A stretch of DNA of 64,000 nucleotides from Patescibacteria group bacterium (GTDB lineage: Bacteria > Patescibacteriota > Minisyncoccia > Moranbacterales > GWC2-37-73). Under the pieces are notes generated by a model. That model worked only from the letters and a program-made list of their open reading frames with translations, was not told where the DNA came from and searched no databases. Of this stretch, positions 14,950-59,009 are shown in pieces. Numbering within the stretch: position 1 is the first letter of the stretch; each line of letters begins with the position of its first letter. A program made the position numbers and the translations under genes. Where the stretch lies: assembly GCA_022709565.1 (NCBI GenBank), contig JAKLIO010000001.1, positions 4,368 through 68,367 of the forward strand, given 5' to 3'.

Positions 14950-16218
14950 TCACTTTATTAGCAAACTTTCTCGATATTGTTCCGCTGGAGCATTCTTGAC
15001 CATATCAATAACTTTATCATAATTTTCTTTTACAACTTTTTCTATCTCATTTATATCTGCTCGAAAAAATTCTTTCCTATTATTCAGCTTATTGATTCTA
15101 TTGTTGTAAAAATGTTGATGTATTTTCGCTTCAAGCTCAGGTGCATTATCTGAAAATATCATAGCATGTATATCAAAAGTAAATGGAACAGAAGCGTCAC
15201 CAAGCTCATCTATTCTATCAGTAGGCTCAAGTCTTCTGGTCATACCAATCTTATATACACCCTCCCCAAATGCGCCAATATTAGAAATAATATACACATA
15301 CCCAGCCTTAGCGTTTTGTTCCCGATAATCAATGACTTTTTCCTCTTTTTCAAGTTCTCCAAGCTGTTCTCTGATTTCTCGCATTCTCTCCTGAATAATT
15401 TTTTTCTCAACTTCATCAATAACATTTTTATATCTTTCTTCTAATCCCTTTAACGCTGTTGAAAAGTGCTTTTTTTCTTTTGCTATTTTTTCTCTTGCTT
15501 CTTTAATCTCTTGTTCTAGCTTTTGTTGTTCGCGCAACTCCTCGCGTATTTTTTTCTGTTCCTCTCTTTCTTCTTGTTTCTTTTGCTGATACTCATATGC
15601 AAGATATAGTTCTTCAAGCTTACAATCTTTATAGTCATAACTTATGGAAACTTGCATGATTGCTCCAATCTTATTTAAAGACTCATACGATTGCTCGATT
15701 CTTTTCACGCTTCTCTCGATATTATTGAATTTGACATTATCAACGCAGTAGTCGCATTCATTATTGAATGACCGCAATACCAGCTTAATCATATCATTGA
15801 CCATTTTCTTGCCTTGAGTTCTGTTGTTATTTACTGTCCAGTTTTGATTTCCATTGGCTGCAATACCTGATTTTATTAGTTGTTTTTGCTTATCTCGAAT
15901 TATCTCTAATCTTTTTTTATATTCATCACTAGAAGTAAAGTTAAATTTTGGTTTATAGAGCGCAAAGTCTTCAAGCATTAACTCTTCCTCTAATACAATA
16001 ATTTGGGATTTCTTTTCATCTATTGAGCTTGTGAGATTTTCTTGTTCTTTCTTGAGTTGTTCATTATTCGCAATTAAACTATCCTTGTCTTTTGCTAATT
16101 CATCAATCTTTCGTTGTATCGCTATTGCATCACCTGCGCCCATTTGAGTTATCAATGATTGCAATTTTTCATTCTCCTTTTTTATTTTCGAGGCGTTTAA
16201 AACATCAAGAATTCCCAT
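14950..16218 (-). CDS. DUF4041-type protein with a C-terminal T5orf172/MUG113 (GIY-YIG-like) domain
   Basis: Has a long coiled-coil region, then GYVYIISN..GEGVYKIGMTRRLEPTDRIDELGDASVPFTFDIHAMIFS..A.ELE..IH..F...R.N..N.RKEFF. The family was recognised from memory, not searched. Confidence 0.75.
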   Translation of the reverse strand: MGILDVLNASKIKKENEKLQSLITQMGAGDAIAIQRKIDELAKDKDSLIANNEQLKKEQENLTSSIDEKKSQIIVLEEELMLEDFALYKPKFNFTSSDEYKKRLEIIRDKQKQLIKSGIAANGNQNWTVNNNRTQGKKMVNDMIKLVLRSFNNECDYCVDNVKFNNIERSVKRIEQSYESLNKIGAIMQVSISYDYKDCKLEELYLAYEYQQKKQEEREEQKKIREELREQQKLEQEIKEAREKIAKEKKHFSTALKGLEERYKNVIDEVEKKIIQERMREIREQLGELEKEEKVIDYREQNAKAGYVYIISNIGAFGEGVYKIGMTRRLEPTDRIDELGDASVPFTFDIHAMIFSDNAPELEAKIHQHFYNNRINKLNNRKEFFRADINEIEKVVKENYDKVIDMVKNAPAEQYRESLLIK

Positions 16219-19100: not shown

Positions 19101-19835
19101 ATGATATATACTGAAAAAATAATTATTTCTGGAGACATTTTAGAATATTATCAATATTCTAAGCCATTATTTAGGGAATTTAAAAAAAAGAAAAAAGAAA
19201 AATTGCCTTGCGAGCCGAAGCAATTGGAGCTAGATTTTTCCATACCCGATACTGCTACTGGCAAACGGGACGATAATATTGCCCGTACTCGCACAAACAT
19301 ACGGCGACTTGTTAATTCCAATCAAGATTTTGATAAATTTGTCACCTTAACTTTTGCAGAAAACATGCAAGATATTAAAATAGCCAATCGTCATTTTAAT
19401 AAATTTATTATGCGTATAAGCTACCGCTATCCTGATTTAAAATATCTCGCAATTATCGAATTTCAAAAGCGTGGAGCTGTCCATTATCATTTTTTATGTA
19501 ATTTGCCTCATATTAAAAATTCTATTCTTTCAGATATTTGGGGACACGGATTTGTCAAAATAAACAAGATCAAGAATGTCACAAATCTTGGAGCTTATGT
19601 TTGCAAATACTTAAGCAAGGACGGCAATAACAAAAAAATGTTTCGCAAGAAGAAATATTTTTGTTCTAAAAACTTAGAGCAACCAAACAAATTTTTTGAT
19701 AACAAAACTATACAAACGCTAAAAAATTTCTATAACCTTTCTTCTGCAAAGCCAGCTTTTCAAACAACTTTTTCCAATGAATACCTCAAGGAAGTTGTAT
19801 ATAAACAGTTCAACCTAAAAAATCTAGCCCCTTGA
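19101..19835 (+). CDS. HUH-superfamily rolling-circle replication initiator (phiX174 gpA / Microviridae VP4-like motifs)
   Basis: Motif I is FVTLTF, motif II is AVHYHFL (HUH), and motif III is GAYVCKYLSKD. The Y-x-x-K-Y pattern matches phiX174 YVAKYVNK. Confidence 0.75.
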   Translation: MIYTEKIIISGDILEYYQYSKPLFREFKKKKKEKLPCEPKQLELDFSIPDTATGKRDDNIARTRTNIRRLVNSNQDFDKFVTLTFAENMQDIKIANRHFNKFIMRISYRYPDLKYLAIIEFQKRGAVHYHFLCNLPHIKNSILSDIWGHGFVKINKIKNVTNLGAYVCKYLSKDGNNKKMFRKKKYFCSKNLEQPNKFFDNKTIQTLKNFYNLSSAKPAFQTTFSNEYLKEVVYKQFNLKNLAP

Positions 19836-19884
19836 TTTTATCTCTTAATTCCGCTAAGTTATGAATATCTAAATATTGAATATT

Positions 19885-27045: not shown

Positions 27046-27165
27046 TTTTATAATTTTCAATTTACAATTTTCAATTTTCAACCAATTTTCAATTTTTCAA
27101 TGTTTTAAATAATTAATTCATTAGAAATTTATTGTAAATTGTTCATTGATCATTGATTATTGAAA
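27046..27165. repeat. cargo-less inverted low-complexity array (TTTTCAATTT arm / ATTGTAAATTG..ATTGAAA arm)
   Basis: The left arm (ttttcaatttacaattttcaattttcaacc...) and right arm (..attgtaaattgttcattgatcattgattattgaaa) are partly complementary, for example caatttacaat/attgtaaattg. Confidence 0.55.
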
Positions 27166-27171
27166 TATTTT

Positions 27172-28536
27172 ATGAACCCAGGAATCTTCAAGGCCTATGA
27201 CATCCGCGGCATCTACCCCTCCGAAATAAATGAGCAGGATGCTTACAAAATTGCCAAAGCTTATTGCAAATTTGTGAAACCCAGCGAGGTTGTCATCGGA
27301 TCAGATGTGCGTTTATCCTCCCCATCACTCAAAAAAGCCGCCATCAAAGCTGTCACGGATCAGGGAATAAAAGTAATCGACGTGGGAGAGATTTCCACTG
27401 ACATGCTCTATTTTGCCGTAGCCAATTACGGATATGCCGGAGGATTTTCCCTTACCGCTTCACATAATCCCAAGGAATATAATGGAGCAAAATTCGTACG
27501 CGAAGAGTCGCGACCAATTTCATCCGACACTGGACTTTTTGAAATTCGTGACATTGCCATGCAAGATACGTCTGAAATTAGCAACTTTGAATTGACGGAA
27601 GAAAATCTAAAGTTGATCGAAAAGAAAAATATAATGGATGATTACATAAACAAAATTAAAACTTTCGCTGATTTTTCTAAATTCAAAAAATTTAAGATTG
27701 TTGCTAATCCGAATTTCGGAGTGGCCGGCCGGGCTATTGATAGATTATTGGAAAACTCTGATATTGAAGTAGTCAAACTTAATTGGGAATCAGATGGCAA
27801 TTTTCCCAAGGGCCGTCCGGATCCATTAATACCAGAAAACCGAGAAGAAATTTCCAAATTGGTTGTGGAAAATGGGGCTGATTTCGGAGTAGCCTGGGAC
27901 GCTGATGCCGACCGCTGTTTCTTCTTTACAGAAAAAGGCGAATTTATTGAAGGCTATTTCATCACGGCACTCTTAGGAAAAATATTTTTAGAAAGAACGC
28001 CGGGAGCAACAATTTTGCATGATCCAAGATTAGTATGGGCAATTCAAGATATCGCCAAAGAAAACGGAGGTTCAGACATCATGACAAAATCCGGTCATGC
28101 TTTCATTAAAGAAAGGATGCGGAAAGAAAACGTGGTTTTTGGCGGCGAAATGAGCGCGCATTATTATTTTAAAGATTATTTTTTCTGCGACAATGGCTTA
28201 ATTCCCTTTGTAATGATGCTGGAATTTCTTTCAACGGAGAAAAAAACGCTTTCAGAAATCATGACGGAAATGTTCTGGAATAAATATTTTGTCAGTGGAG
28301 AAATCAACAGTGAAGTTTCTGACGTGAAAACAAAAATATCCGAAGCTAAATCAAAATATTCTCCGCAGGCTAAGAATGTTGATGAAACTGACGGCGTTTC
28401 CATAGAATTTGAAGATTGGCGTTTCAATCTGCGTGGCTCAAACACGGAACCGGTCATCCGTCTGAATGTCGAAGCAAAAACTAAAGAAAGGATGGAAGAA
28501 AAGAGAGATGAACTGCTGGAAATTATTAGAAAATAA
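27172..28536 (+). CDS. phosphomannomutase/phosphoglucomutase (alpha-D-phosphohexomutase family)
   Basis: Starts MNPGIFKAYDIRG, has the active-site loop TASHNPKEYNGAKF, and the Mg loop GVAWDADADR. I prefer the ATG 27172 start over the TTG at 27160. Confidence 0.88.
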   Translation: MNPGIFKAYDIRGIYPSEINEQDAYKIAKAYCKFVKPSEVVIGSDVRLSSPSLKKAAIKAVTDQGIKVIDVGEISTDMLYFAVANYGYAGGFSLTASHNPKEYNGAKFVREESRPISSDTGLFEIRDIAMQDTSEISNFELTEENLKLIEKKNIMDDYINKIKTFADFSKFKKFKIVANPNFGVAGRAIDRLLENSDIEVVKLNWESDGNFPKGRPDPLIPENREEISKLVVENGADFGVAWDADADRCFFFTEKGEFIEGYFITALLGKIFLERTPGATILHDPRLVWAIQDIAKENGGSDIMTKSGHAFIKERMRKENVVFGGEMSAHYYFKDYFFCDNGLIPFVMMLEFLSTEKKTLSEIMTEMFWNKYFVSGEINSEVSDVKTKISEAKSKYSPQAKNVDETDGVSIEFEDWRFNLRGSNTEPVIRLNVEAKTKERMEEKRDELLEIIRK

Positions 28537-28539
28537 TTT

Positions 28540-28576
28540 CAAAGTCTAAAGCTTAAAGTCTAATATCTAAATTAAG
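28540..28576. repeat. left inverted-repeat array (AAGTCTAA units) of four-helix-bundle cassette 1
   Basis: caaagtctaaagcttaaagtctaatatctaaa is complementary to the array at 28967-28995. Confidence 0.6.
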
Positions 28577-28581
28577 TATAA

Positions 28582-28944
28582 ATGCCTGCGTTTTTGAAGA
28601 ATAATTTAGAAGAAAGAACAACTAATTTTAGCAAAAAGGTTGTAATTTTTTTAAAGACAATAAAAAAAGACAATTTGAGTTTGCCTCTAATTAACCAGCT
28701 CGTAAGATCAGCTACTAGCATAGGCGCTAACTATTTTGAAGCTGGTGGATCCTGTTCAAAAAAAGACTTTAAAAATAAAATATATATTTGCAAAAAAGAA
28801 TGCAGAGAAACTAAATATTGGCTGGAGATTTTAGCCGAAGCTCATCCTGAATCTAAGAATATATGCAGGGAGCTATGGAAGGAAGCTCATGAATTAACTT
28901 TAATTTTTTCTAAAACAATCCTGACACTAGAAAATAAAAAATGA
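28582..28944 (+). CDS. four-helix-bundle protein (23S rRNA intervening-sequence protein family)
   Basis: Carries the family signature ..QLVRSATSIGANYFEAGGSCSKKDFKNKIYICKKECRETKYWLEIL... Confidence 0.85.
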   Translation: MPAFLKNNLEERTTNFSKKVVIFLKTIKKDNLSLPLINQLVRSATSIGANYFEAGGSCSKKDFKNKIYICKKECRETKYWLEILAEAHPESKNICRELWKEAHELTLIFSKTILTLENKK

Positions 28945-28966
28945 TAAATTTGAACTTTTTCAATTG

Positions 28967-28995
28967 TTTTAGACTTTAGATTTTAGACCTTAGCC
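28967..28995. repeat. right inverted-repeat array of four-helix-bundle cassette 1
   Basis: ttttagactttagattttagaccttagcc abuts the trpS stop codon. Confidence 0.6.
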
Positions 28996-29979
28996 TTAAA
29001 TGATGAATCCAACTTTCTTTTTCACTTCTTGCATTTTCTTTTCAGCAATCAATCGAGCCTTTTCCGCGCCTTCTTTTAATATCTTTATGACTTCTTCATC
29101 AGAATAAGAATTGTATTTTTGTTGGAAATCTTTCAAAAAAGAAACAACTATTTCGGCCAAATCATTTTTGAATTCTCCATAGCCTTTGCCAGCATACATT
29201 TTTTCAATATCTTTCGGACTTTTTTCGGAAAAAAAAGAATGAATGTTTATAAGATTTTTTAGCGCAGGCTTCTCTTCGCTATAAATTATTTCGCTGCCGC
29301 TATCCGTCACGGCTTTTTTTATTTTTCTACGTACTGATTCAGCGTCATCCAAAAGAGCAATGTAATTATATTCTGAAGAAGATGACTTATCCATTTTTTT
29401 TGTCGGATCATCAAGCCCCCTGATTCGCATCCCGCTTTTTTTCACAAATGGCTCTGGAATAACAAATGTTTCTCCAAAATTATTATTAAACCGCTTGGCT
29501 AAAGTGCGAGCCAGTTCTACATGTTGCACCTGATCCTCTCCGACTGGAACTTTTTCTGCATCATAAAGCAGAATGTCCGCGGCCATCAGAACCGGATAAT
29601 CATATAGACCAACACCGGCACTTTCCCTGCCATTTTTTTGAGACTTATCTTTGAACTGAGTCATCTTGTCCAAATCAGATACTCGAGCAACAGTATTTAA
29701 TATCCATGCCAATTCCGCATGCTCAGCTACTTGCGATTGAACAAATATGGCCGATTTTTTTGGATCAATTCCGGAAGCCAAATATATTTTCGCAATTTCA
29801 ATAGTCCTCTTATTTAAAGTCTTTGGATCTTGTGGAACTGTTATTGCATGCATATCAACGACACAAAAAACGGCTTCGTACTCGTCCTGAAAATCAAGCC
29901 AGTTTCTGATTGCACCGATATAATTTCCAATTGTAAGGCTTCCACTTGGCTTAATGCCCGAAAAAATTCGTTTTGCCAT
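28996..29979 (-). CDS. trpS: tryptophan--tRNA ligase
   Basis: Has FSGIKPSGSLTIGNYIGA (HIGH-region variant), KMDKSSSS (KMSKS) and GEDQ.QH. The 327-aa length fits. Confidence 0.93.
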   Translation of the reverse strand: MAKRIFSGIKPSGSLTIGNYIGAIRNWLDFQDEYEAVFCVVDMHAITVPQDPKTLNKRTIEIAKIYLASGIDPKKSAIFVQSQVAEHAELAWILNTVARVSDLDKMTQFKDKSQKNGRESAGVGLYDYPVLMAADILLYDAEKVPVGEDQVQHVELARTLAKRFNNNFGETFVIPEPFVKKSGMRIRGLDDPTKKMDKSSSSEYNYIALLDDAESVRRKIKKAVTDSGSEIIYSEEKPALKNLINIHSFFSEKSPKDIEKMYAGKGYGEFKNDLAEIVVSFLKDFQQKYNSYSDEEVIKILKEGAEKARLIAEKKMQEVKKKVGFII

Positions 29980-30048
29980 AAATACATTAATTAATTATCA
30001 ATTGCTTTAATAATACCCAAAACAGGCTTTTTTTGCAAACCAAATTAA

Positions 30049-30084
30049 GTATTTCGTATTTTGTATCCAGTATTTGGTATTTAT
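30049..30084. repeat. short-period GTATTT(C/G)GTAT array
   Basis: agtatttcgtattttgtatccagtatttggtatttat lies directly 5' of 168-bp repeat copy A. Confidence 0.6.
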
Positions 30085-30086
30085 AG

Positions 30087-30254
30087 GCGCCATATGAAGT
30101 ACGTAGGCGAAGCGCGAGTGATGAGCGTTAAAAAATTTTAAAACGGAGCGTAGCGAAGTGCAAATTTTAGCGAAGAACGAAGCGCTTGCCATCAGTATCT
30201 TCATCGGGCGCGACTTTCTTTTGTAACTTTTCTTATCTAGAAAGAAAAGTTAAT
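30087..30254. repeat. 168-bp structured repeat, copy A (candidate small RNA; strand unknown)
   Basis: About 96% identical to 38540-38707 (4 substitutions, 2 single-nt indels). The ends pair (GCGCCATATGAAGTAC / GTATCTTCATCGGGCGC), and GGCGAAGCGC pairs with GCGCTTGCC. Confidence 0.7.
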
Positions 30255-30318
30255 TCTAGAAATTGCATAAAAAGAAAGGTAAAAAATATATTGCTTACAA
30301 AAAATAATTTTTTACAAA

Positions 30319-30349
30319 TAAAAAACTGCTCATTTCTGAGCAGCTTTTT
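30319..30349 (-). terminator. bidirectional rho-independent terminator after rnj
   Basis: The stem CTGCTCA tttc TGAGCAG is flanked by A6 and T5. Confidence 0.7.
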
Positions 30350-30357
30350 CATTTCAT

Positions 30358-32319
30358 TTATACTTCGATTACTACTGGTAAAACCATCGGTCGTCTTTCT
30401 GTTTTAGTAAACAAGAACGATCCGACAGATTCACGGATATTATTCTTCACATAATCCCAATTGACCGGCAAACCTTCGGAAGTTTTTTCTTTGACCACCT
30501 TTTCCACCACCCGCTTTGTCGCATTCACCAAATCAAAATTTTCTTTGACGAAAATAAATCCGCGCGACGTGATTTGCGGCGTACCGATAATTTTTTTGGT
30601 TTTGGAATCTATAATAACGACAATCGTAAACATTCCGTCCTTAGCCAAAAGCTGTCTGTCTCTCAGCACCACTTCACCAACGTCGCCCACGCCCAATCCG
30701 TCTACCATGACATAAGCCGTGTCCACTTTGTTTGGCAAAATCTTGGCTTTGTTTTCATGGACCTCCAATTGATGGCCATTGTCCAAAACAAAAATATTTT
30801 CTTTGCGAATGCCGACTTTTTCTCCCAGTTTGGCCGCTTCTTTGAGCATATAGTGATTGCCATAGACCGGCAGAAAGAAATCAGGCTTGATCTGACGCAA
30901 GATATCTTGAATATCATTAGCGTTGCTATGTCCGCTGGTATGGACATCCAAAATATCAGAATGGATAACATTATCGCACTTGCGATAGAGATCATCTTTC
31001 AGCCTTTGCACAGTGCGTTCATTGCCTGGAACAATCGACGAAGAAAATATGATTGTGTCATCTTTTTGGATTCGCACAAAGCGATGTTCGTCATTGACGA
31101 TGCGCGACAACACAGCATTGCCTTCGCCCTGCGCGCCGGTGCAAATCACCACCACTTTATTTCTCGGATGTTTTTGAATCTCATTAACTGAAATCAGAGT
31201 CTTTTTATGCGCTTTGATATAGCCCAATTCCTTGGCAATTTCGATATTCATTTTCATGCTATATCCATCCAGTGCCACTTTCTTGCCAATACTTTCCACG
31301 TATTCGATAATTTTTCCAATACGCTCGATTTGTGAAGAAAATGTGCCGATAATAACCAGTCCCGTGGCTGAGCTGATAAGTTCGTTCAAGTTTTTATACA
31401 TTTCCGATTCCGGTTTGTCGGCCGATTCATTGTCCGTCGCACCCAAGCTTTCTAGCATAAGTATCCGCGGTGAAGGCAGTTTCGACAAATGATCATAGGT
31501 GACCATTTTATGATTCGGATTCTTGTCCATCGTCCAGTCACCGGGATGGATTATTGTTCCGTCCGGAGTTCTAATAATAACACCGACTGCATCCATCACA
31601 GAATGCTCCACTTCAAAAAATTCAATTTCAAATTTTCCCAGTTTGACTTTGTCAGAGACGGAATTGACTCTGATGATTTTCAAATTTTGCGCTGAATTTT
31701 TGTCGAAGTCTTCCATCTTTTTCTTGACCAAGGCCAATGTCAAATCACGTCCGACAATCGGTGGATAGCCGAGTTCTTTGAGCAAGATCGGAGCCGCTCC
31801 AATATGATCGAGATGTCCATGGCTCAAAAGAACTCCGCGGACATTTTTTTCCTTGCCTTTCAGATAACTCATATTTGGAATAATATAATCTATTCCCGGC
31901 ATGTCTTCTTCTGGAAACTGAATGCCCATATCTAAGATTATGATGTCGGAGTCATATTCAAACATGGTCATATTGCGACCAACTTCCTCATTTCCTCCCA
32001 TCGGGGTTATGCGCAGATTTTTGCTGACCACATTCCCCTGAGACTTCTGAGTCCTTGTGTTATTGCTGATATTAATCCTCCTGCCAATATTCTGGCTAGG
32101 ACGCCTGCTTGGAGCATTACGCCGTGAAGGCTGGCCGGAATGCTGGCTAACATTTTTGGAAGGTTTTTCCATCCTGACATGATAGGCTTTTTGCTCTATC
32201 ATCTTGCCCAATTGTTTTAGCGGCTTTTTGAACGCAGCCGCTTGCCTGTTGCCTACCTGTCTAGCAGGCAAAGGGTTCGCGTTGGCAGCCATCTGGCCGC
32301 CTTGTTTTTTGTTAAACAT
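30358..32319 (-). CDS. rnj: ribonuclease J (with a ~100-aa basic N-terminal extension)
   Basis: Has the metallo-beta-lactamase motif LLSHGHLDHIG, beta-CASP features and HTSGH. Confidence 0.9.
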   Translation of the reverse strand: MFNKKQGGQMAANANPLPARQVGNRQAAAFKKPLKQLGKMIEQKAYHVRMEKPSKNVSQHSGQPSRRNAPSRRPSQNIGRRINISNNTRTQKSQGNVVSKNLRITPMGGNEEVGRNMTMFEYDSDIIILDMGIQFPEEDMPGIDYIIPNMSYLKGKEKNVRGVLLSHGHLDHIGAAPILLKELGYPPIVGRDLTLALVKKKMEDFDKNSAQNLKIIRVNSVSDKVKLGKFEIEFFEVEHSVMDAVGVIIRTPDGTIIHPGDWTMDKNPNHKMVTYDHLSKLPSPRILMLESLGATDNESADKPESEMYKNLNELISSATGLVIIGTFSSQIERIGKIIEYVESIGKKVALDGYSMKMNIEIAKELGYIKAHKKTLISVNEIQKHPRNKVVVICTGAQGEGNAVLSRIVNDEHRFVRIQKDDTIIFSSSIVPGNERTVQRLKDDLYRKCDNVIHSDILDVHTSGHSNANDIQDILRQIKPDFFLPVYGNHYMLKEAAKLGEKVGIRKENIFVLDNGHQLEVHENKAKILPNKVDTAYVMVDGLGVGDVGEVVLRDRQLLAKDGMFTIVVIIDSKTKKIIGTPQITSRGFIFVKENFDLVNATKRVVEKVVKEKTSEGLPVNWDYVKNNIRESVGSFLFTKTERRPMVLPVVIEV

Positions 32320-34263: not shown

Positions 34264-34306
34264 TTAATGACTAATTTCCAATGACTAATGACAAGTCAAT
34301 GACAAA
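34264..34306. repeat. left inverted-repeat array (ATGAC(T/A)AA units) of four-helix-bundle cassette 2
   Basis: aatgactaatttccaatgactaatgacaagtcaatgacaaag is complementary to the array at 34662-34715. Confidence 0.6.
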
Positions 34307-34319
34307 GTCCAAATAACAA

Positions 34320-34715
34320 CTAATACTTTCTCTTGGCAATACTAGAAAAAATAAGCGTTAATTCATGTGCTTCTTTCCATAATTTTCTACAATAATCAGC
34401 ATTGTTAGGTTCGGCAGTTGCTAACATATGAAGCCAATAGGTTGTTTCCTTAGACTCTTTTTTACAAATACCTATCTTATGAACAAAGTCCTTTTTTGAT
34501 TCTGCACAATCAGCCTCCATATAATTAGCGCCAATGCTAGTAGCGCTACGAATCAACTGGCTAGTAATTGATCTATTTATATTATTTTCTTTTATTTTTT
34601 TGACAAAAATTATAACCTCACAACCAAACTTAGATGTGCGTTCAGCTAAGTTGTATTTATTTTTGTCATTTTGATTTTGGTTTTGATTTGTCATTGGTAA
34701 TTTGTCATTTGTCAT
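34320..34715 (-). CDS. four-helix-bundle protein (23S rRNA intervening-sequence protein family)
   Basis: Carries ..SQLIRSATSIGANYMEADCAESKKDFVHKIGICKKESKETTYWLHML... The N-terminal MTNDKLPMTNQNQNQND is encoded by the repeat array. The start overlaps the pgi stop as ATGA. Confidence 0.85.
   Translation of the reverse strand: MTNDKLPMTNQNQNQNDKNKYNLAERTSKFGCEVIIFVKKIKENNINRSITSQLIRSATSIGANYMEADCAESKKDFVHKIGICKKESKETTYWLHMLATAEPNNADYCRKLWKEAHELTLIFSSIAKRKY
34662..34715. repeat. right inverted-repeat array of four-helix-bundle cassette 2
   Basis: tttgtcattttgattttggttttgatttgtcattggtaatttgtcatttgtcat. Confidence 0.6.
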
Positions 34716-35320
34716 TCTATGACTTCCAATCCACCTAAATCTTCTTTTTCGATTGATTTATACAGAGGATTTTTTTTGAGCGCCGGCTGGCCTTCGTGTT
34801 CAACGACATAATACGCAAAACCTCGCATTTTTTTGACCAATTCATAATCTGCATGTCCAGGAAAACTAACAGGATCGCGATCTTCAAAATCAACCGGACT
34901 GTCATCAGCCGTGGCAAAATAAGTCTGGCCGGTATTAACAACCAAGTGGCCTTCCTCGGGAGACATGAAAATTTTATCACCCACTTTAACTGGGATTGCC
35001 TTAAACTCCTCCACTTCGTCGGCAATCATCTGCCCCTCCGCATCTTTTTTTAATTTTTGCAAAAGAGCCACGCCTTCTCCGAAAATAATCCAGTAAGTTT
35101 CGCTCAAATCTCCGACGTGGTAATGACCGTACGTTTTAATATATTCTCCCGAAATTGTGCCTGGTTCCCAGACAGTGATATTTTTCTGATCAACTCCCCC
35201 GCGAATCATATAATAATGTATAGCTGGGCCAACACCCTTAGGATCCATCAAAACATCTTGCATTTTTTCCTGTGTTCGGGCTGCATAATGCTTGGGAACA
35301 TTTTTGAAATCTGTTTCCAT
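34712..35320 (-). CDS. pgi: cupin-type (archaeal-type) glucose-6-phosphate isomerase
   Basis: Has the TYGHYH metal motif, a cupin core of about 200 aa, and a position beside manC and the phosphohexomutase gene. The family was recognised from memory. Confidence 0.7.
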   Translation of the reverse strand: METDFKNVPKHYAARTQEKMQDVLMDPKGVGPAIHYYMIRGGVDQKNITVWEPGTISGEYIKTYGHYHVGDLSETYWIIFGEGVALLQKLKKDAEGQMIADEVEEFKAIPVKVGDKIFMSPEEGHLVVNTGQTYFATADDSPVDFEDRDPVSFPGHADYELVKKMRGFAYYVVEHEGQPALKKNPLYKSIEKEDLGGLEVIE

Positions 35321-38539: not shown

Positions 38540-38707
38540 GCGCCATATGAAGTACGTAGGCAAAGCGCGAGTGATGAGCGTTAAAAAATTTTAAAACGGA
38601 GCGTAGCGGAGTGCAAATTTTAGTGAAGAACGAAGCGCTTGCCACAGTATCTTCATCAGGCGCGACTTTCTTTTGTAACTTTTCTTATCCTAGAAAGAAA
38701 AGTTAAT
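38540..38707. repeat. 168-bp structured repeat, copy B
   Basis: See copy A (30087-30254). Same orientation and same type of flanking array. Confidence 0.7.
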
Positions 38708-38806
38708 GAAAATTTTGCAAAAAAATAAAGCGGAAATAAATTCTCTCAGAAAGAAATGTTAATGAATCTTTACGGAAAAAAAAGCGAGAGAAGAGCATTT
38801 AAATAT

Positions 38807-43451: not shown

Positions 43452-43540
43452 AGTGTTTTGACAAGCTTCAGAATACCCCTAATTGCCCTAATAGTCAATA
43501 AAAACATGCCTATAAGCAGACATGCTTTAAAATAATTTTA

Positions 43541-43580
43541 CCCCGTTAAATTTTCACAAAGTGAAACTATTTAACTGGGG
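43541..43580 (-). repeat. hairpin-family element
   Basis: The plus strand reads CCCCGTTAAAT TTTCAC aaa GTGAAA ct ATTTAACTGGGG. Confidence 0.6.
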
Positions 43581-43633
43581 TGTTTTAAAAGTGTTACTTA
43601 ACTAGTTACTGAACACTTTATTATTACTTCTCT

Positions 43634-45889: not shown

Positions 45890-45898
45890 ATATTCTTG

Positions 45899-45938
45899 CC
45901 CCGTTAAATTTCCACGAAGTGAAACTATTTAACTGGGG
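45899..45938 (-). repeat. hairpin-family element abutting the 45889 start
   Basis: The plus strand reads CCCCGTTAAAT TTCCAC gaa GTGAAA ct ATTTAACTGGGG. Confidence 0.6.
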
Positions 45939-45960
45939 TTTTATATTTTATAATTATTTA

Positions 45961-54580: not shown

Positions 54581-54984
54581 GGGGTTGTTTAGTTTCGACA
54601 GGTTGTACTTTTCAAAATATGCAAGTCGATCAACCATGTTTATATCGTAAAACTAACATGGAAGATATAAGTGCAAACTTCATATCAAAGGCGCGGGCTT
54701 CATTTGCGCAAGCATTTGCAAGTTTTGCTCCTGCTTTAGCTTAAGTTAAAGCCATCGAACCGCTAATTTCTCATAAGCGGACTTCGGTGCCAAACATGAG
54801 AATAGTTTTCTGCGGTTTTCCGGACGCATAAAGCGAAAAATTTCTGGAAACGACGTATGCAGGTTTTGTTTGTTCCTGACTGCATGTTGTTGAATCCCGA
54901 TTTTATCGGGAAAGAAACAAACTAAACTTGTAGAGGATTTTGAATTGTCAATTTTGGACGCGAGTGCAATTCTCGCCAACTCCA
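54581..54984 (+). ncRNA. ssrA: tmRNA (SsrA)
   Basis: The 5' end GGGGTTGTTTAGTTTCGACAGG pairs with the 3' end CAACTCC-A and includes the G3:U70 pair. The T arm is GCGAG TGCAATT CTCGC. The tag ORF GCA AAC..GCT TAA (54673-54744) encodes ANFISKARASFAQAFASFAPALA. Confidence 0.85.
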
Positions 54985-55232
54985 CACCTGAAAAATTTTA
55001 AAAGCTAAATTTTAAATTTTAATTGAATTTTAAATGATTTAATCCATTAAAACATTTAATCATTAAGATTTGATTTAAAATTTTAAATTTAAAACTTAAA
55101 ATTATTATCAGTATTTGTTTAATAAAATATAAAAAAATCACAAAGCGTTTTTTAAAAACTCTAATGTGATTTTACAAAGTTATAAGAAAGCGATTTAAGT
55201 TTAAGCCAAAACAACCAACAGGTCCTGCTCAA

Positions 55233-55739
55233 ATGCGCATTAATGACGGCATCAGAGCTGTTCGCGTTTTTGTCATTGATGAAATGGGAAAACAGCTGGG
55301 AGAAATGGCAATTTTCGAAGCCATAGCCTTGGCTAGAGAGCACATGTTGGATCTGGTTGAAGTTTCGCCCAAAGCCGTCCCACCCGTATGCCGCATCATG
55401 GATTATGGCAAGCAACTCTACCAGCAGTCTAAACAAATGCGGATTGCCAAGACTAAGCAGAAAAGAGTTGAAACGAAAGGCGTGCGCCTGGGAGTCAGAA
55501 CCGACACCCATGATCTTAATTTCAAAAAAGCACAAGCCGAAAAATTTTTGGGCCACGGCGACAAGGTCAAGATAGAAATCGTGCTCAAAGGCCGTGAAAA
55601 AGCTCATCAAGATTTAGCCAGAAAAAACCTGCAAGATTTTATTTCAGGAATAACCGCTCCCTACAAGATCGAAGAACAGATCAAAAGATTCCCTGGAGGA
55701 TTCAATGTTATCCTCGCTCCAACTGAAGAACAAAAATAA
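55233..55739 (+). CDS. infC: translation initiation factor IF-3
   Basis: Reads RINDGIRAVRVFVIDEMGKQLGEM...LDLVEVSPKAVPPVCRIMDYGK. The frame is open back to 55170, so a non-ATG start such as ATA 55182 is possible. Confidence 0.9.
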   Translation: MRINDGIRAVRVFVIDEMGKQLGEMAIFEAIALAREHMLDLVEVSPKAVPPVCRIMDYGKQLYQQSKQMRIAKTKQKRVETKGVRLGVRTDTHDLNFKKAQAEKFLGHGDKVKIEIVLKGREKAHQDLARKNLQDFISGITAPYKIEEQIKRFPGGFNVILAPTEEQK

Positions 55740-55740
55740 T

Positions 55741-55846
55741 TTCTAATTTTCAATTTATAATTTCTAAGCAATTCCCAATAATTCAATTTCAAAATTCAAA
55801 AATTTAAGCATTGTTTGAAAATTGAAAATTGAGAATTGAAAATTTT
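55741..55846. repeat. cargo-less inverted low-complexity array (TTCAAAA arm / TTGAAAA arm)
   Basis: ..attcaatttcaaaattcaaaaattt.. is complementary to ..tttgaaaattgaaaattgagaattgaaaatt... It lies between infC and rpmI. Confidence 0.6.
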
Positions 55847-56123: not shown

Positions 56124-56154
56124 CTAAAAGCTAAAAGCTAGAAGCTAAAAGCTA
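56124..56154. repeat. short-period GCTAAAA array
   Basis: ctaaaagctaaaagctagaagctaaaagcta lies just upstream of rplT. Confidence 0.55.
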
Positions 56155-56666: not shown

Positions 56667-59009
56667 CTAACGGAATAGTTTCATTAATGAATTAGAAAAT
56701 ATTGGAATAAAAAAAGAAATTAGTAAACCAATGAAAGCAATAATTTGGAAAAAAGTGTTTTTAGATCTAATTGCACTAAATGTTACAATCAAAATAAAAT
56801 AAATCCATAAAGGAAAATAAGTTACCATGTAGAACATGCCACCGTATATACCCATGTTACCAATCATTAATCCTTGAGAAAAAAAGTATGGAATAACTAG
56901 TAAAGCCCAAATGAAATTATCCCTCTCTCTTAACAATTTTAAAGAATAATGAAACAAATATGCTACTGTTGCGACTGCAATAAATATTCCCAAAGAACCA
57001 GGGATTAAATCTACTCCTCCACCAGCACCGAAAGTTCTTCCTTCTTTTGAAAAAAATCCTAAATTAATCAACAAAATAAACAATCTTGCTATAAATAATG
57101 GCAATAAAGACAAAAAGATAAGTTTTGCTTTTTTTTGCAAGTTTTTAAGATTAATTTCTAACAAAAAAATAACAATGAACATAGTAATCAACAGATATAT
57201 TGAATACGATTCTAACATTTTTAATTTTTCTGTTACCCGCACTGGTCCAATAAATAAATGAATTAAAATTTCAATAATTGGTAAATACAGGAAAATAAGC
57301 AAAATAATTTTTGTAATTCTGGAAAGATTGCTCTCTACGTTTATTTTTTCTGATTCTGAAAAATTAAAAGCAACTTTATTTTCCATTTGTTTTTGTTTAA
57401 TTTTTATGTCTACTTTTATATCACAATAAATGAAAACTGAGATCGCAATTAGGTAAATTGAATAATAAAGTGCTGTTTCATAGAAAAATTTTATATCTAC
57501 CCATAAAAGATAATGAAATGTTAGCAAACAAGAAGCCAGCACAAACATAGGATACAACACAATAGCGATAGGAACATTTTCTCTTTTTCTTTTTGTTATT
57601 AGCAAAATGCTACTGAAAATAAAGATCAATATTAAAATAAGTGCTGCAATGTTTTTATAGATATATGCTTTATTATTTTCTGATTTTCCAGAAAAGTCTA
57701 TTCCTAGTTTAAAATAACATTCTTCTTTGGAAACAAGTTCGCTTTTTATCCCAAAATTACCAGTCATGCGTGACATAATACCTCTAAATGTATTCGGATT
57801 TTCTGATAAACCCGGAAATTTTTCGCAATATGTGTTTCCGGATTTTGACTCATTTAAACTGCTCATGGCAAACTCATAACACTCCTCTTGATTTTGTCTG
57901 GGAAAATTAATACAAGCATTGGCATTTTTTCCCAAAAAGGTTCCTCCTTGATAGGAATACATAACGCTTAACGCTTCTTGATAACATTCTTCTTTATTAT
58001 CGGGCTCAATAAAATCTTCACAAATTTTCGGATTTTCAACAAAATAATCAGAAAATTTTGATTTCATCAAACTATCAAGAACTTTTTGATAACAATTAGC
58101 GCTATACTCTGCTGAAGGAAACTTACTACAAATTGGAATGTTTTTTACCAAATATTCTTCAAATTTTTCTCCTGTAAGTTTATCAAAAGCAACATTATAA
58201 CAAGCAGATCTGTCTTCTGATAAAGGAAATCTCTTGCAAATTGGAATGTTTTTTACCAAGTATTCTTCAAGCTTTTCTCCTGAAAGTTCACTAAGAGCAA
58301 AATTATAACACTCGGTGCGATACGCATCATTTTTAGTATGATACAATTCTTTCATTGATGATCCTGGAACTTTTTCGCATAATTCAGGATTTTTTGGTAT
58401 TAAATCATCCTTACTTGCGATTGCTTTTTCAAGGCCATTTATATAACAATGCTCTTTTAACCCTATCTGCGTTGTCTGTATATTTTCACAAGTATTTATA
58501 TTTCCTGTATAAATGGAAACTTGCCTGAGACAATTATTTTTAATAATTTCGCGTTCAGAATCGGGAATTAATCTGTTTGTTACTGCCCCTGCCGGAATAT
58601 CAATCTCATTAATTCTTTCACATAGACTAGAATTTTTCTCAGCAATAGCTATCTGCGAAACGCAATCGGCTTTATTTGAATATTCACTATTATTAAACTT
58701 TTGAAAGCAAATATTTATATCCCTATTTTTTAAGGCTACTTGCATAAAACATAAGGTTGATTCACGATATGGATCGTAACCTGTTTTATAATATTCCCCG
58801 CACCCAGGAGGAGCAAGACATTTTTCCCAATCTTTTCTTATTTTTTCACATTCGCTTATGTCAGAATGTTGTTCGTAGTTTGTATATCCCTGAAGATTTT
58901 CTGCTGAAGCATTATTTGCATAACCAAAAAGCAAGCTAACAATAATTACCGATATAATAACAAAAAATATTCGAACAAAGAATGAATAATAAATATCTTT
59001 ATAATACAT
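56667..59009 (-). CDS. large membrane protein: N-terminal TM, ~400-aa array of Cys-pair repeats, C-terminal polytopic domain
   Basis: 780 aa. It has about 10 repeats of the pattern C-x(8-14)-(E/A)CY, including a 105-bp near-identical tandem duplication (EEYLVKNIPIC..F..) around 58130-58290. More than 10 TM helices follow. The gene is very AT-rich. Confidence 0.7.
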   Translation of the reverse strand: MYYKDIYYSFFVRIFFVIISVIIVSLLFGYANNASAENLQGYTNYEQHSDISECEKIRKDWEKCLAPPGCGEYYKTGYDPYRESTLCFMQVALKNRDINICFQKFNNSEYSNKADCVSQIAIAEKNSSLCERINEIDIPAGAVTNRLIPDSEREIIKNNCLRQVSIYTGNINTCENIQTTQIGLKEHCYINGLEKAIASKDDLIPKNPELCEKVPGSSMKELYHTKNDAYRTECYNFALSELSGEKLEEYLVKNIPICKRFPLSEDRSACYNVAFDKLTGEKFEEYLVKNIPICSKFPSAEYSANCYQKVLDSLMKSKFSDYFVENPKICEDFIEPDNKEECYQEALSVMYSYQGGTFLGKNANACINFPRQNQEECYEFAMSSLNESKSGNTYCEKFPGLSENPNTFRGIMSRMTGNFGIKSELVSKEECYFKLGIDFSGKSENNKAYIYKNIAALILILIFIFSSILLITKRKRENVPIAIVLYPMFVLASCLLTFHYLLWVDIKFFYETALYYSIYLIAISVFIYCDIKVDIKIKQKQMENKVAFNFSESEKINVESNLSRITKIILLIFLYLPIIEILIHLFIGPVRVTEKLKMLESYSIYLLITMFIVIFLLEINLKNLQKKAKLIFLSLLPLFIARLFILLINLGFFSKEGRTFGAGGGVDLIPGSLGIFIAVATVAYLFHYSLKLLRERDNFIWALLVIPYFFSQGLMIGNMGIYGGMFYMVTYFPLWIYFILIVTFSAIRSKNTFFQIIAFIGLLISFFIPIFSNSLMKLFR

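Follow-up and report, generated by a model that had tools for sequence, protein, structure and literature searches.

A 64,000-nt stretch of a Patescibacteria contig (JAKLIO010000001.1; hereafter, the window) contains a small gene for a four-helix-bundle (4HB) protein that lies between two arrays of 7-nt repeats, and the arrays face each other as inverted repeats. We refer to the open reading frame (ORF) together with its two arrays, or arms, as a cassette. The organism names of the closest relatives of TrpS and of the 4HB protein place the genome in Candidatus Moranbacteria. The cassette is situated between two convergent genes, pmm and trpS, and the region is organized as follows.

27160-28536, forward strand: the upstream host gene, phosphoglucomutase/phosphomannomutase (pmm), with all four PGM/PMM domains (Pfam PGM_PMM_I-IV)
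28541-28571, forward strand: left (5') arm, about 4.4 degenerate heptamers (AAAGTCT, AAAGCTT, AAAGTCT, AATATCT, AAA), recognized from the sequence and the inverted repeats and kept in orthologous and paralogous cassettes
28582-28944, forward strand: 4HB (Avd/S23p-like) ORF of 120 aa, identified from PF05635, TIGR02436, PDB 2RLD, an AlphaFold2 (AF2) model, Foldseek and dN/dS
28967-28997, forward strand: right (3') arm, about 4.3 heptamers (TTTTAGA, CTTTAGA, TTTTAGA, CCTTAGC), complementary to the left arm (Tandem Repeats Finder (TRF), period 7)
28996-29979, reverse strand: the convergent host gene trpS, a class Ib tRNA synthetase (Pfam tRNA-synt_1b, E 1.3e-74)

The gap between the pmm and trpS stop codons (at 28536 and 28996) is 459 nt and is taken up by the ORF and its arms, as a first-pass annotation of the window had stated. 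The unit is compact (about 460 bp), with no more than about 10-20 nt between each array and the start or stop codon. The pmm stop codon is 4 nt ahead of the left array, a 10-nt leader separates that array from the ATG, and the right array abuts and overlaps the trpS stop codon. The same annotation was right to place an array to the left of the gene, but its end coordinate (28540-28576) was about 5 nt too far, and the repeat period of 8 that it implied was mistaken, as TRF gives 7.

The two arrays are complementary, as had been claimed. Complementarity is 83% over 23 nt and 71% over 41 nt. The local inverted-alignment score is 28; scores at least this high came up in 1.1% of the dinucleotide shuffles and at 0.06% of all window positions with the same geometry. 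The arm-arm RNA duplex is significantly stable (-21.7 kcal/mol, z -4.1), and in the minimum free energy fold of 28520-29015 the closing stem is made of the two arrays. Terminal inverted repeats that serve as an enclosing stem are a mark of the intervening sequences (IVSs) of 23S rRNA, and tandem heptamers in that stem beside an S23p ORF are a feature of the Coxiella and Azospirillum IVSs; both are found here. The 8-mer AAGTCTAA occurs three times in the window versus 2.3 expected, a count that alone is not significant; all three copies are inside the cassette and none is elsewhere in the 64 kb. Taken alone, the pmm/trpS locus shows modest complementarity. What makes the case strong is a second copy in the window, together with a family-wide pattern.

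A scan of the cassette region for promoter and terminator consensus sequences found nothing useful in the window copy, and PADLOC and PHROGs gave no matches. Rfam detected tmRNA and tRNAs only, and no rRNA, in the window; the cassette is flanked by pmm and trpS and does not lie inside a 23S rRNA gene (at helix 25 or helix 45).

The 4HB protein

The first-pass annotation had assigned the gene to the 23S-IVS protein family, and this assignment is well founded. The product of the ORF matches PF05635 (23S_rRNA_IVP; E 2e-16, 60.6 bits, cut-off 33.8), TIGR02436 ("four helix bundle protein"; E 2.5e-22, 79.2 bits, cut-off 24) and PDB 2RLD (BT_0352; E 1.6e-19). Its AF2 model (pLDDT 92) has helices at residues 9-24, 33-55, 60-87 and 89-118. 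With this model, Foldseek found 2RLD (TM about 0.8), 2GSC (about 0.77) and bAvd (4DWL; 0.65-0.80), and also matched 8UB7, the ribonucleoprotein (RNP) of a diversity-generating retroelement (DGR). The modeled fold is an up-down four-helix bundle like those of 2RLD, 2GSC and 4DWL, each of which was deposited with five chains (A-E). By analogy with bAvd, 2RLD and 2GSC, the cassette protein is probably a basic, nucleic-acid-binding pentamer, and its target may be its own periodic arms.

The 4HB ORF is under strong purifying selection and is not decaying. Between the window and two related loci (L167 and L170; L-numbers label the loci fetched for comparison), dN of the ORF is 0.085-0.089 and dS is 1.2-2.7 (saturated), whereas dN is 0.19-0.22 for TrpS and 0.41 for RNase J. 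Compared with TrpS and RNase J, the 4HB protein is the better conserved in Patescibacteria, and this points to a genuine function, cellular or selfish. The arm sequence is also conserved beyond synonymous sites: in the same comparison the non-coding flanks are 72-89% identical, versus 55-67% at third positions of the ORF.

Matched arms in a second cassette and across the family

The window contains a second 4HB gene, also between inverted heptamer arrays.

34320-34715, reverse strand: second 4HB ORF (PF05635 E 4.4e-15, 56.2 bits; TIGR02436 79.1 bits; phmmer against the first copy, 6.7e-40)
34266-34319, reverse strand: 3' arm, GTCATTA/GTCATTG heptamers on the strand of the gene; an inverted repeat of 54 nt, 76% complementary
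34663-34716, reverse strand: 5' arm, AATGACA/AAATGAC heptamers on the strand of the gene (inverted repeat, duplex)

The inverted-alignment score of this cassette is 43 (P<0.0005), and its heptamer (AAATGAC / GTCATTT) differs from that of the first cassette (AAAGTCT / TAGACTT). The ORF starts at ATG 34715 or at ATG 34694; the annotated N-terminus (MTNDKLPMTNQNQNQ) is translated from the heptamer array itself. The neighbors are gpi and manC, and the cassette sits inside a co-directional run of genes.

The pattern extends to the family. Eighty metagenomic loci encoding homologues of 50-68% identity were fetched, and 100 nt on each side of the ORF were analyzed for the 76 genes with enough flanking sequence. 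Nearly all 76 have inverted heptamer arrays next to the start and stop codons. The median inverted local score is 40 for a gene's own flanks; flanks exchanged between loci give 25, shuffled flanks 17 and the direct orientation 21 (Mann-Whitney p 9e-13). A score of at least 36 is reached by 63% of the 4HB ORFs and by 5.6% of 197 other ORFs in the fetched loci. Median period-7 self-matches are 17/21 and 16/21, versus 9-12 at the other periods within 4-11. An array typically has 4-7 units. The stem, typically 40 nt long (median), includes 33 matches; on its inner side it comes to about 7 nt from the ATG at one end of the ORF and to about 12 nt beyond the stop codon at the other. The heptamer itself varies by locus: AATTTTC is commonest, and AAATGAC, AAATCCT, ACGAATG, AATTTTG and others occur. 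Despite this variation between loci, the two arms of any one locus match. The arms also have a polarity relative to the ORF, the left arm being richer in C than in G in 43 loci and the reverse in 10.

Relocation of the cassette and empty sites

The closest homologues of the first ORF (74-85% aa identity) all have AAAGTCT-type arms and conserved bits of the leader and trailer, and they are found in four gene contexts.

pmm/trpS: the window, L167, L170
hypothetical protein/uracil-DNA glycosylase (UDG): L173, L197
T2SSE-like ATPase/ruvB: L199
Pyr_redox/malic enzyme: L200

In every one of these contexts the first heptamer starts 3-8 nt past the upstream stop codon. The ORF and its arms have been inherited and relocated together as one unit, and the four contexts support the earlier suggestion of a mobile cassette. 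No transposase was seen, and there was no target-site duplication at the boundaries in seven loci. The unit does not have the properties of a transposable element or a miniature inverted-repeat transposable element (MITE): its sole ORF is the 4HB protein and its arm sequence is lineage-specific.

The first-pass annotation had proposed comparing the pmm/trpS junction among relatives, and had reasoned that a vertically conserved gene whose site is never empty would speak against mobility. The ORF is indeed kept vertically within the clade at this junction, but empty sites exist, so the objection does not apply. Five relatives (L007, L009, L012, L036 and L037) keep convergent trpS and pmm with a short spacer and no 4HB gene, and in four of the five (L007, L012, L036 and L037) the spacer has a GC-rich, terminator-type hairpin. 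Four further relatives have unrelated genes at the junction. Where the window has the cassette, relatives have just a terminator hairpin. Given its several contexts and its presence or absence at an orthologous site, it is a mobile cassette in the broad sense. L167 and L170 carry the cassette at the same junction with saturated dS; within its clade the window copy is ancient and has been passed on vertically, yet it belongs to a unit that has moved between sites.

The junction has a further peculiarity.

28504-29043: patch of 540 nt, consisting of the cassette, the final ~33 nt of pmm plus 48 nt of trpS (alignment to L006, one mismatch)

The L006 genes that flank this patch are strongly diverged (44% aa identity for pmm and 75% for TrpS), and the L006 contig is present in two samples. 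Two explanations fit the patch, a recent exchange by recombination and an assembly (co-assembly) chimera. In addition, pmm (window 27160-28536 versus L006 4341-5678) exists among close relatives as two alleles or xenologues, with 39-44% aa identity between types. The window and L167 have one type, L006 and L170 have the other, and the adjacent cassette is common to both. The pmm/trpS junction has the look of a hot spot for recombination.

Heptamer hairpins without an ORF

The window shows an enrichment specific to period 7: by a strict criterion it has five arrays of this period and none at periods 5, 6 or 8-13. Heptamer arrays also occur apart from 4HB genes, mostly as hairpins.

25835-25932, forward strand: hairpin in frame in recG (24788-27013), (AATTTCC)x4 followed by inverted AAAATTC-type units (TRF)
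27052-27163, forward strand: hairpin between recG and pmm, an AATTTTC-type array facing an ATTGATC/ATTGTAA-type array (TRF, duplex)
54991-55106, forward strand: hairpin directly 3' of tmRNA (54581-54987), arms of 53 nt around a 10-nt loop; no inverted repeat in the 64 kb is longer
55737-55844, forward strand: hairpin after infC, a TAATTTC-type array facing a TTGAAAA array (TRF, duplex)
56124-56154: lone (CTAAAAG)x4.4 array just upstream of rplT

The hairpin in recG adds about 30 aa to RecG (NFQFPISNFQ...KIRNSKL). At the same position in L006, where the flanks are about 90% identical, there is a hairpin of an unrelated heptamer (AGTAACC / AGTTACC), and a distant RecG is without any insert there. 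This strain-dependent unit shows that ORF-less arrays turn over quickly. The hairpins and the rplT array could be terminators, processing sites or cassette remnants.

Comparison with known systems

In the 23S rRNA IVS of Coxiella burnetii, 3-4 tandem GACAGAT heptamers, variable in copy number between strains, are directly upstream of the S23p ORF and lie within a 28-bp terminal stem that is cut by RNase III in vitro (PMC4990558). Such cleavage has also been described for other rRNA IVSs. In the IVS of the Azospirillum lipoferum plasmid rrn 23S rRNA, CAGAGGA/CGGAGGA arrays face their complement around a 4HB ORF. The ORF-bearing 23S IVSs of Coxiella, Leptospira and Azospirillum resemble the window cassettes in having a PF05635 ORF in the loop of a stem formed by terminal inverted repeats, in lacking a promoter and in measuring a few hundred bp. 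In both Coxiella and Azospirillum, tandem heptamers make up the stem arms, so the analogy to IVSs is closer than the first-pass annotation could have known. In contrast to these IVSs, the window cassettes are outside rRNA, the first between protein-coding genes and the second in a co-directional run. Also, the window ORF is under strong purifying selection, whereas the authors of the Coxiella study argued that the ORF in their IVS is decaying and not expressed (PMC4990558). Insertions in rRNA from the candidate phyla radiation (CPR) were already known to include 23S_rRNA_IVP ORFs (PMC11270868). A conserved 23S motif was absent from all CPR loci that we fetched, and no 4HB gene was found in 23S rRNA there.

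Annotated plasmid records provided examples of inverted arrays at 4HB genes from other phyla, namely Cyanobacteriota, Chloroflexota and Bacillota.

Nostocales: GTAGGGA; TCAGGAG
Geminocystis: AAAAGGG
Planktothrix: CCCCAAT and CGTAAAT, mirrored unit by unit
Euhalothece: CCAGTGA facing 12 copies of TCACTGG
Chlorohelix (Chloroflexota): inverted arrays
Monoglobus (Bacillota): inverted arrays

The arrays seen in Bacteroidota were direct or ambiguous. In five plasmid records (L176, L182, L189, L193 and L194), 4HB genes are wedged into defense operons, between cas6 and cas4 (in two genera), cas10 and cmr3, drmD and pglX, or hsdS and hsdR. Further operon sites are at a resistance-nodulation-division (RND) pump and, in antisense, between ribonucleotide reductase (RNR) subunit genes. 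PF05635 genes with matched heptamer arms extend across at least six phyla, and the association appears not to have been described before.

Heptamer repeats are familiar on their own. The short tandemly repeated repetitive (STRR) sequences of cyanobacteria are heptamer tandem repeats in intergenic DNA. TAACTGA repeats occur in Beggiatoaceae, Cyanobacteria and Bacteroidetes (PMC4679880). Like the arrays described here, STRR and TAACTGA repeats are short intergenic arrays of 7-nt units that differ by lineage, and they often sit immediately ahead of start codons. In Chondrinema, TAACTGA-type units flank a 4HB gene. STRR and TAACTGA repeats were described as direct repeats with an unknown or regulatory role, whereas the arrays in the window are inverted pairs around one gene family. 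The paper on TAACTGA repeats and its supplement do not mention 4HB genes (PMC4679880), and in open-access text the only link of 4HB or S23p genes to heptamer or STRR repeats was the remark on Coxiella.

Other elements share some features of the cassettes or the hairpins. Rickettsia palindromic elements (RPEs) are short palindromic insertions tolerated in frame in protein genes. The ORF-less hairpins (and only these) are like RPEs and MITE-like palindromes in this respect, as in recG (25835-25932); they differ in that their arms are heptamer arrays, the unit differs between strains at one site and there is no family consensus. Integron attC cassettes and repetitive extragenic palindromes (REPs) with their associated RAYT transposases resemble the window cassettes as promoter-less units of small genes that are associated with imperfect inverted repeats and in which structure is conserved over sequence. 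However, attC is on one side of a cassette and requires an integrase and an attI platform, REPs are GC-rich and linked to a Y1 transposase, and neither an integrase nor a Y1 transposase is linked to the window cassettes. Finally, bAvd of the DGRs (4DWL, 8UB7) has a homologous 4HB fold (TM 0.65-0.80) and is small and basic with pentameric relatives, but its identity to the window protein is about 15%, and the window gene has no reverse transcriptase, template repeat (TR) or variable repeat (VR) nearby. Heptamer arms were also not seen at the one homologue on a phage contig that was examined.

A model for the cassette and alternative explanations

We consider it reasonably probable that the locus is an IVS-type cassette, in which a PF05635 ORF with inverted heptamer arms is transcribed by read-through and processed by RNase III. 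The cassette would ride on read-through transcription from pmm, its co-directional upstream gene. In the transcript, the arms would pair as an A/U-rich stem of 25-40 bp with the ORF in the loop, and by analogy with the Coxiella IVS, RNase III could cleave this stem. Cleavage would release the ORF RNA and set the end of the host mRNA. In this way the insertion might be harmless to the flanking genes and could be tolerated in rRNA, in operons and between convergent genes. The cassette probably spreads by recombination or by a trans-acting activity, because no transposase is encoded. Slippage in the tandem units, combined with hairpin-templated correction, could keep the arms matched.

Several observations weigh against this interpretation. 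Transcription and processing in this organism are steps that we infer by analogy. The fold of the whole cassette RNA is not significant (z only -1.3). Arm duplexes of the antisense strand are no less stable than those of the sense strand, and mismatches compatible with G.U pairs have no bias to the sense strand (86 versus 82); selection on a sense RNA stem is therefore not demonstrated, and a role at the DNA level fits equally well. Matched arms could also result from mutational processes (slippage, template switching) without selection. The 4HB gene is co-oriented with its upstream gene in 60 of 63 loci, against a genomic baseline of 0.88 (p 0.048), which is marginal as evidence for dependence on read-through. 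The window copy has not been recently mobile, because the same junction has been kept over saturated synonymous divergence. In addition, the arrays at the 4HB genes of Pseudanabaena and Bernardetia are direct and not inverted, and there are no arrays at the 4HB gene in one Calothrix locus or one phage contig.

A possible, if rather unlikely, alternative is that the arms act as DNA. A recombinase or nuclease acting in trans might recognize a hairpin, cruciform or fold of single-stranded DNA by its structure and not its sequence, and move the cassette, comparable to attC and its integrase or REP and RAYT; pairing in RNA would be incidental. The arm sequence is free to change from lineage to lineage, but complementarity and period persist, and there is no asymmetry between sense and antisense in wobble-compatible mismatches or duplex energy. 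The four contexts were reached without an encoded transposase. ORF-less hairpins, including the in-frame one of recG, lie at many sites and are replaced between strains. However, the cassettes have no candidate recombinase linked to them and show no target-site duplication, and in the sole relative that has been studied experimentally the stem is an RNA substrate of RNase III. The polarity of the arms (C>G on the left, 43 versus 10) would be needless for a symmetric DNA structure, although common descent could explain it.

It is less likely still, and in our view improbable, that the arrays are primarily binding sites for their own pentameric 4HB protein, with about one repeat per subunit, serving autoregulation, RNA protection or formation of an RNP, and that pairing of the arms is secondary. 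The arm sequence is conserved beyond synonymous sites in the cassette lineage, the arm type tracks the ORF lineage and the arrays typically have 4-7 units. Moreover, 2RLD, 2GSC and 4DWL crystallize with five chains, and bAvd is a pentamer that binds RNA and the reverse transcriptase in the DGR RNP. However, co-inheritance alone explains why arm type tracks ORF lineage, the ORF-less hairpins of the same genome carry heptamers unrelated to either cassette, and the putative binding is extrapolated from the family member in DGRs.

Two further explanations can be largely dismissed. It is very unlikely that heptamer repeats are simply general in the intergenic DNA of this genome and that a small gene of the ordinary, vertically inherited kind is flanked by two of them by chance. 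Period-7 arrays are indeed found in many of the window's intergenic regions that lack a 4HB gene, and in related loci a strict test for period 7 is passed by 7% of the intergenic regions that are not beside a 4HB gene, but matched inverted flanks are found at both 4HB genes of the window and family-wide at 63% versus 5.6% of ORFs, AAGTCTAA is nowhere else in the 64 kb, the same arms follow the ORF into four contexts and inverted arms also occur in distant phyla, so this explanation is largely refuted already. DGRs are common in Patescibacteria. We give almost no credence, however, to the 4HB gene being the Avd accessory factor of a DGR, although PF05635 is the Avd-like family (PMC10053308) and the fold matches both bAvd (4DWL) and the DGR RNP (8UB7); we rejected this candidate because the neighbors of the two 4HB genes are housekeeping genes (pmm/trpS and gpi/manC), none of ten further window ORFs (184-422 aa) scanned against Pfam encodes a reverse transcriptase, and no direct repeat pair resembling TR and VR is present anywhere in the window.

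PF05635/TIGR02436 proteins are among the commonest "hypothetical" small proteins in Cyanobacteria, Bacteroidota, Patescibacteria and others. To our knowledge, ORF-bearing rRNA IVSs and heptamer tandem repeats have each gone unexplained for about 30 years. Our analysis ties PF05635 genes, rRNA IVSs and heptamer repeats together, and we found no paper in open-access text that does so. The ORF with its matched inverted arms is one unit, whether in rRNA, inside operons (cas, restriction-modification, BREX/DISARM, RNR and RND) or between convergent genes. This suggests a rule by which a very large gene family could be annotated, and it draws attention to insertions that break up operons. The regularity is also experimentally tractable, by mapping of RNase III cleavage, assays of protein-arm binding and transplantation of cassettes. 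We speculate, while regarding it as doubtful in this full form, that non-DGR PF05635 genes with inverted heptamer arms make up a single pan-bacterial class of cassette that rides on transcripts and is excised at the RNA level. The IVSs of rRNA would be copies that landed in rRNA, an Avd-like pentamer would recognize the arms and promote maintenance or spread, and ORF-less arrays (STRR, TAACTGA repeats and solo hairpins, including the recG insert) would be non-autonomous derivatives or footprints.

Additional observations

Periodic or palindromic flanks were also noted around two genes of other families in the fetched loci. In L087 (3553-3969), a gene with a PDDEXK_3 (GxxExxY-type) nuclease fold is between ATCAGCG-type periodic inverted arrays, and in L151 (2158-2811) an IS200-like Y1 transposase gene is between GC-rich, REP-like palindromes.

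Several other repeats are present in the window. A relatively GC-rich, internally palindromic repeat of about 200 nt occurs at 30087-30289 and 38540-38741, both intergenic, with a GTATTTC-type heptamer array ahead of each copy. Between the two copies, identity is 97% across a 105-nt core and 76% in the following 97 nt; aligned with gaps over about 236 nt, they are 88.6% identical. The repeat has no ORF and no Rfam match (29980-30360 scanned), and it is predicted to fold into a long hairpin on either strand (z about -1.4). L167 has a distant 4HB cassette in the trpS-rnj spacer, where the window has the first copy of this repeat. A 56-nt repeat, 88% identical, with the hairpin CCCCGTTAAATTT...AAACTATTTAACTGGGG, is at 43532-43587 and 45890-45945. 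A tandem duplication of 108 nt (36 codons), 77% identical, is at 58073-58288 within ORF 56667-59009, which encodes a large, uncharacterized protein of 780 aa with no Pfam match and lies in the most AT-rich part of the window.

Two other segments have genes of types associated with mobility. From 19101 to 21465, a rolling-circle-type Rep (PF23343 REP_ORF2-G2P) is followed by a large serine recombinase, and the segment, which ends at tRNA-Ser (21345-21432), is probably a small integrated element. At 14950-16218 is a gene for a DUF4041 and T5orf172/MUG113 (GIY-YIG-like) protein, a type often met in mobile or defense contexts.

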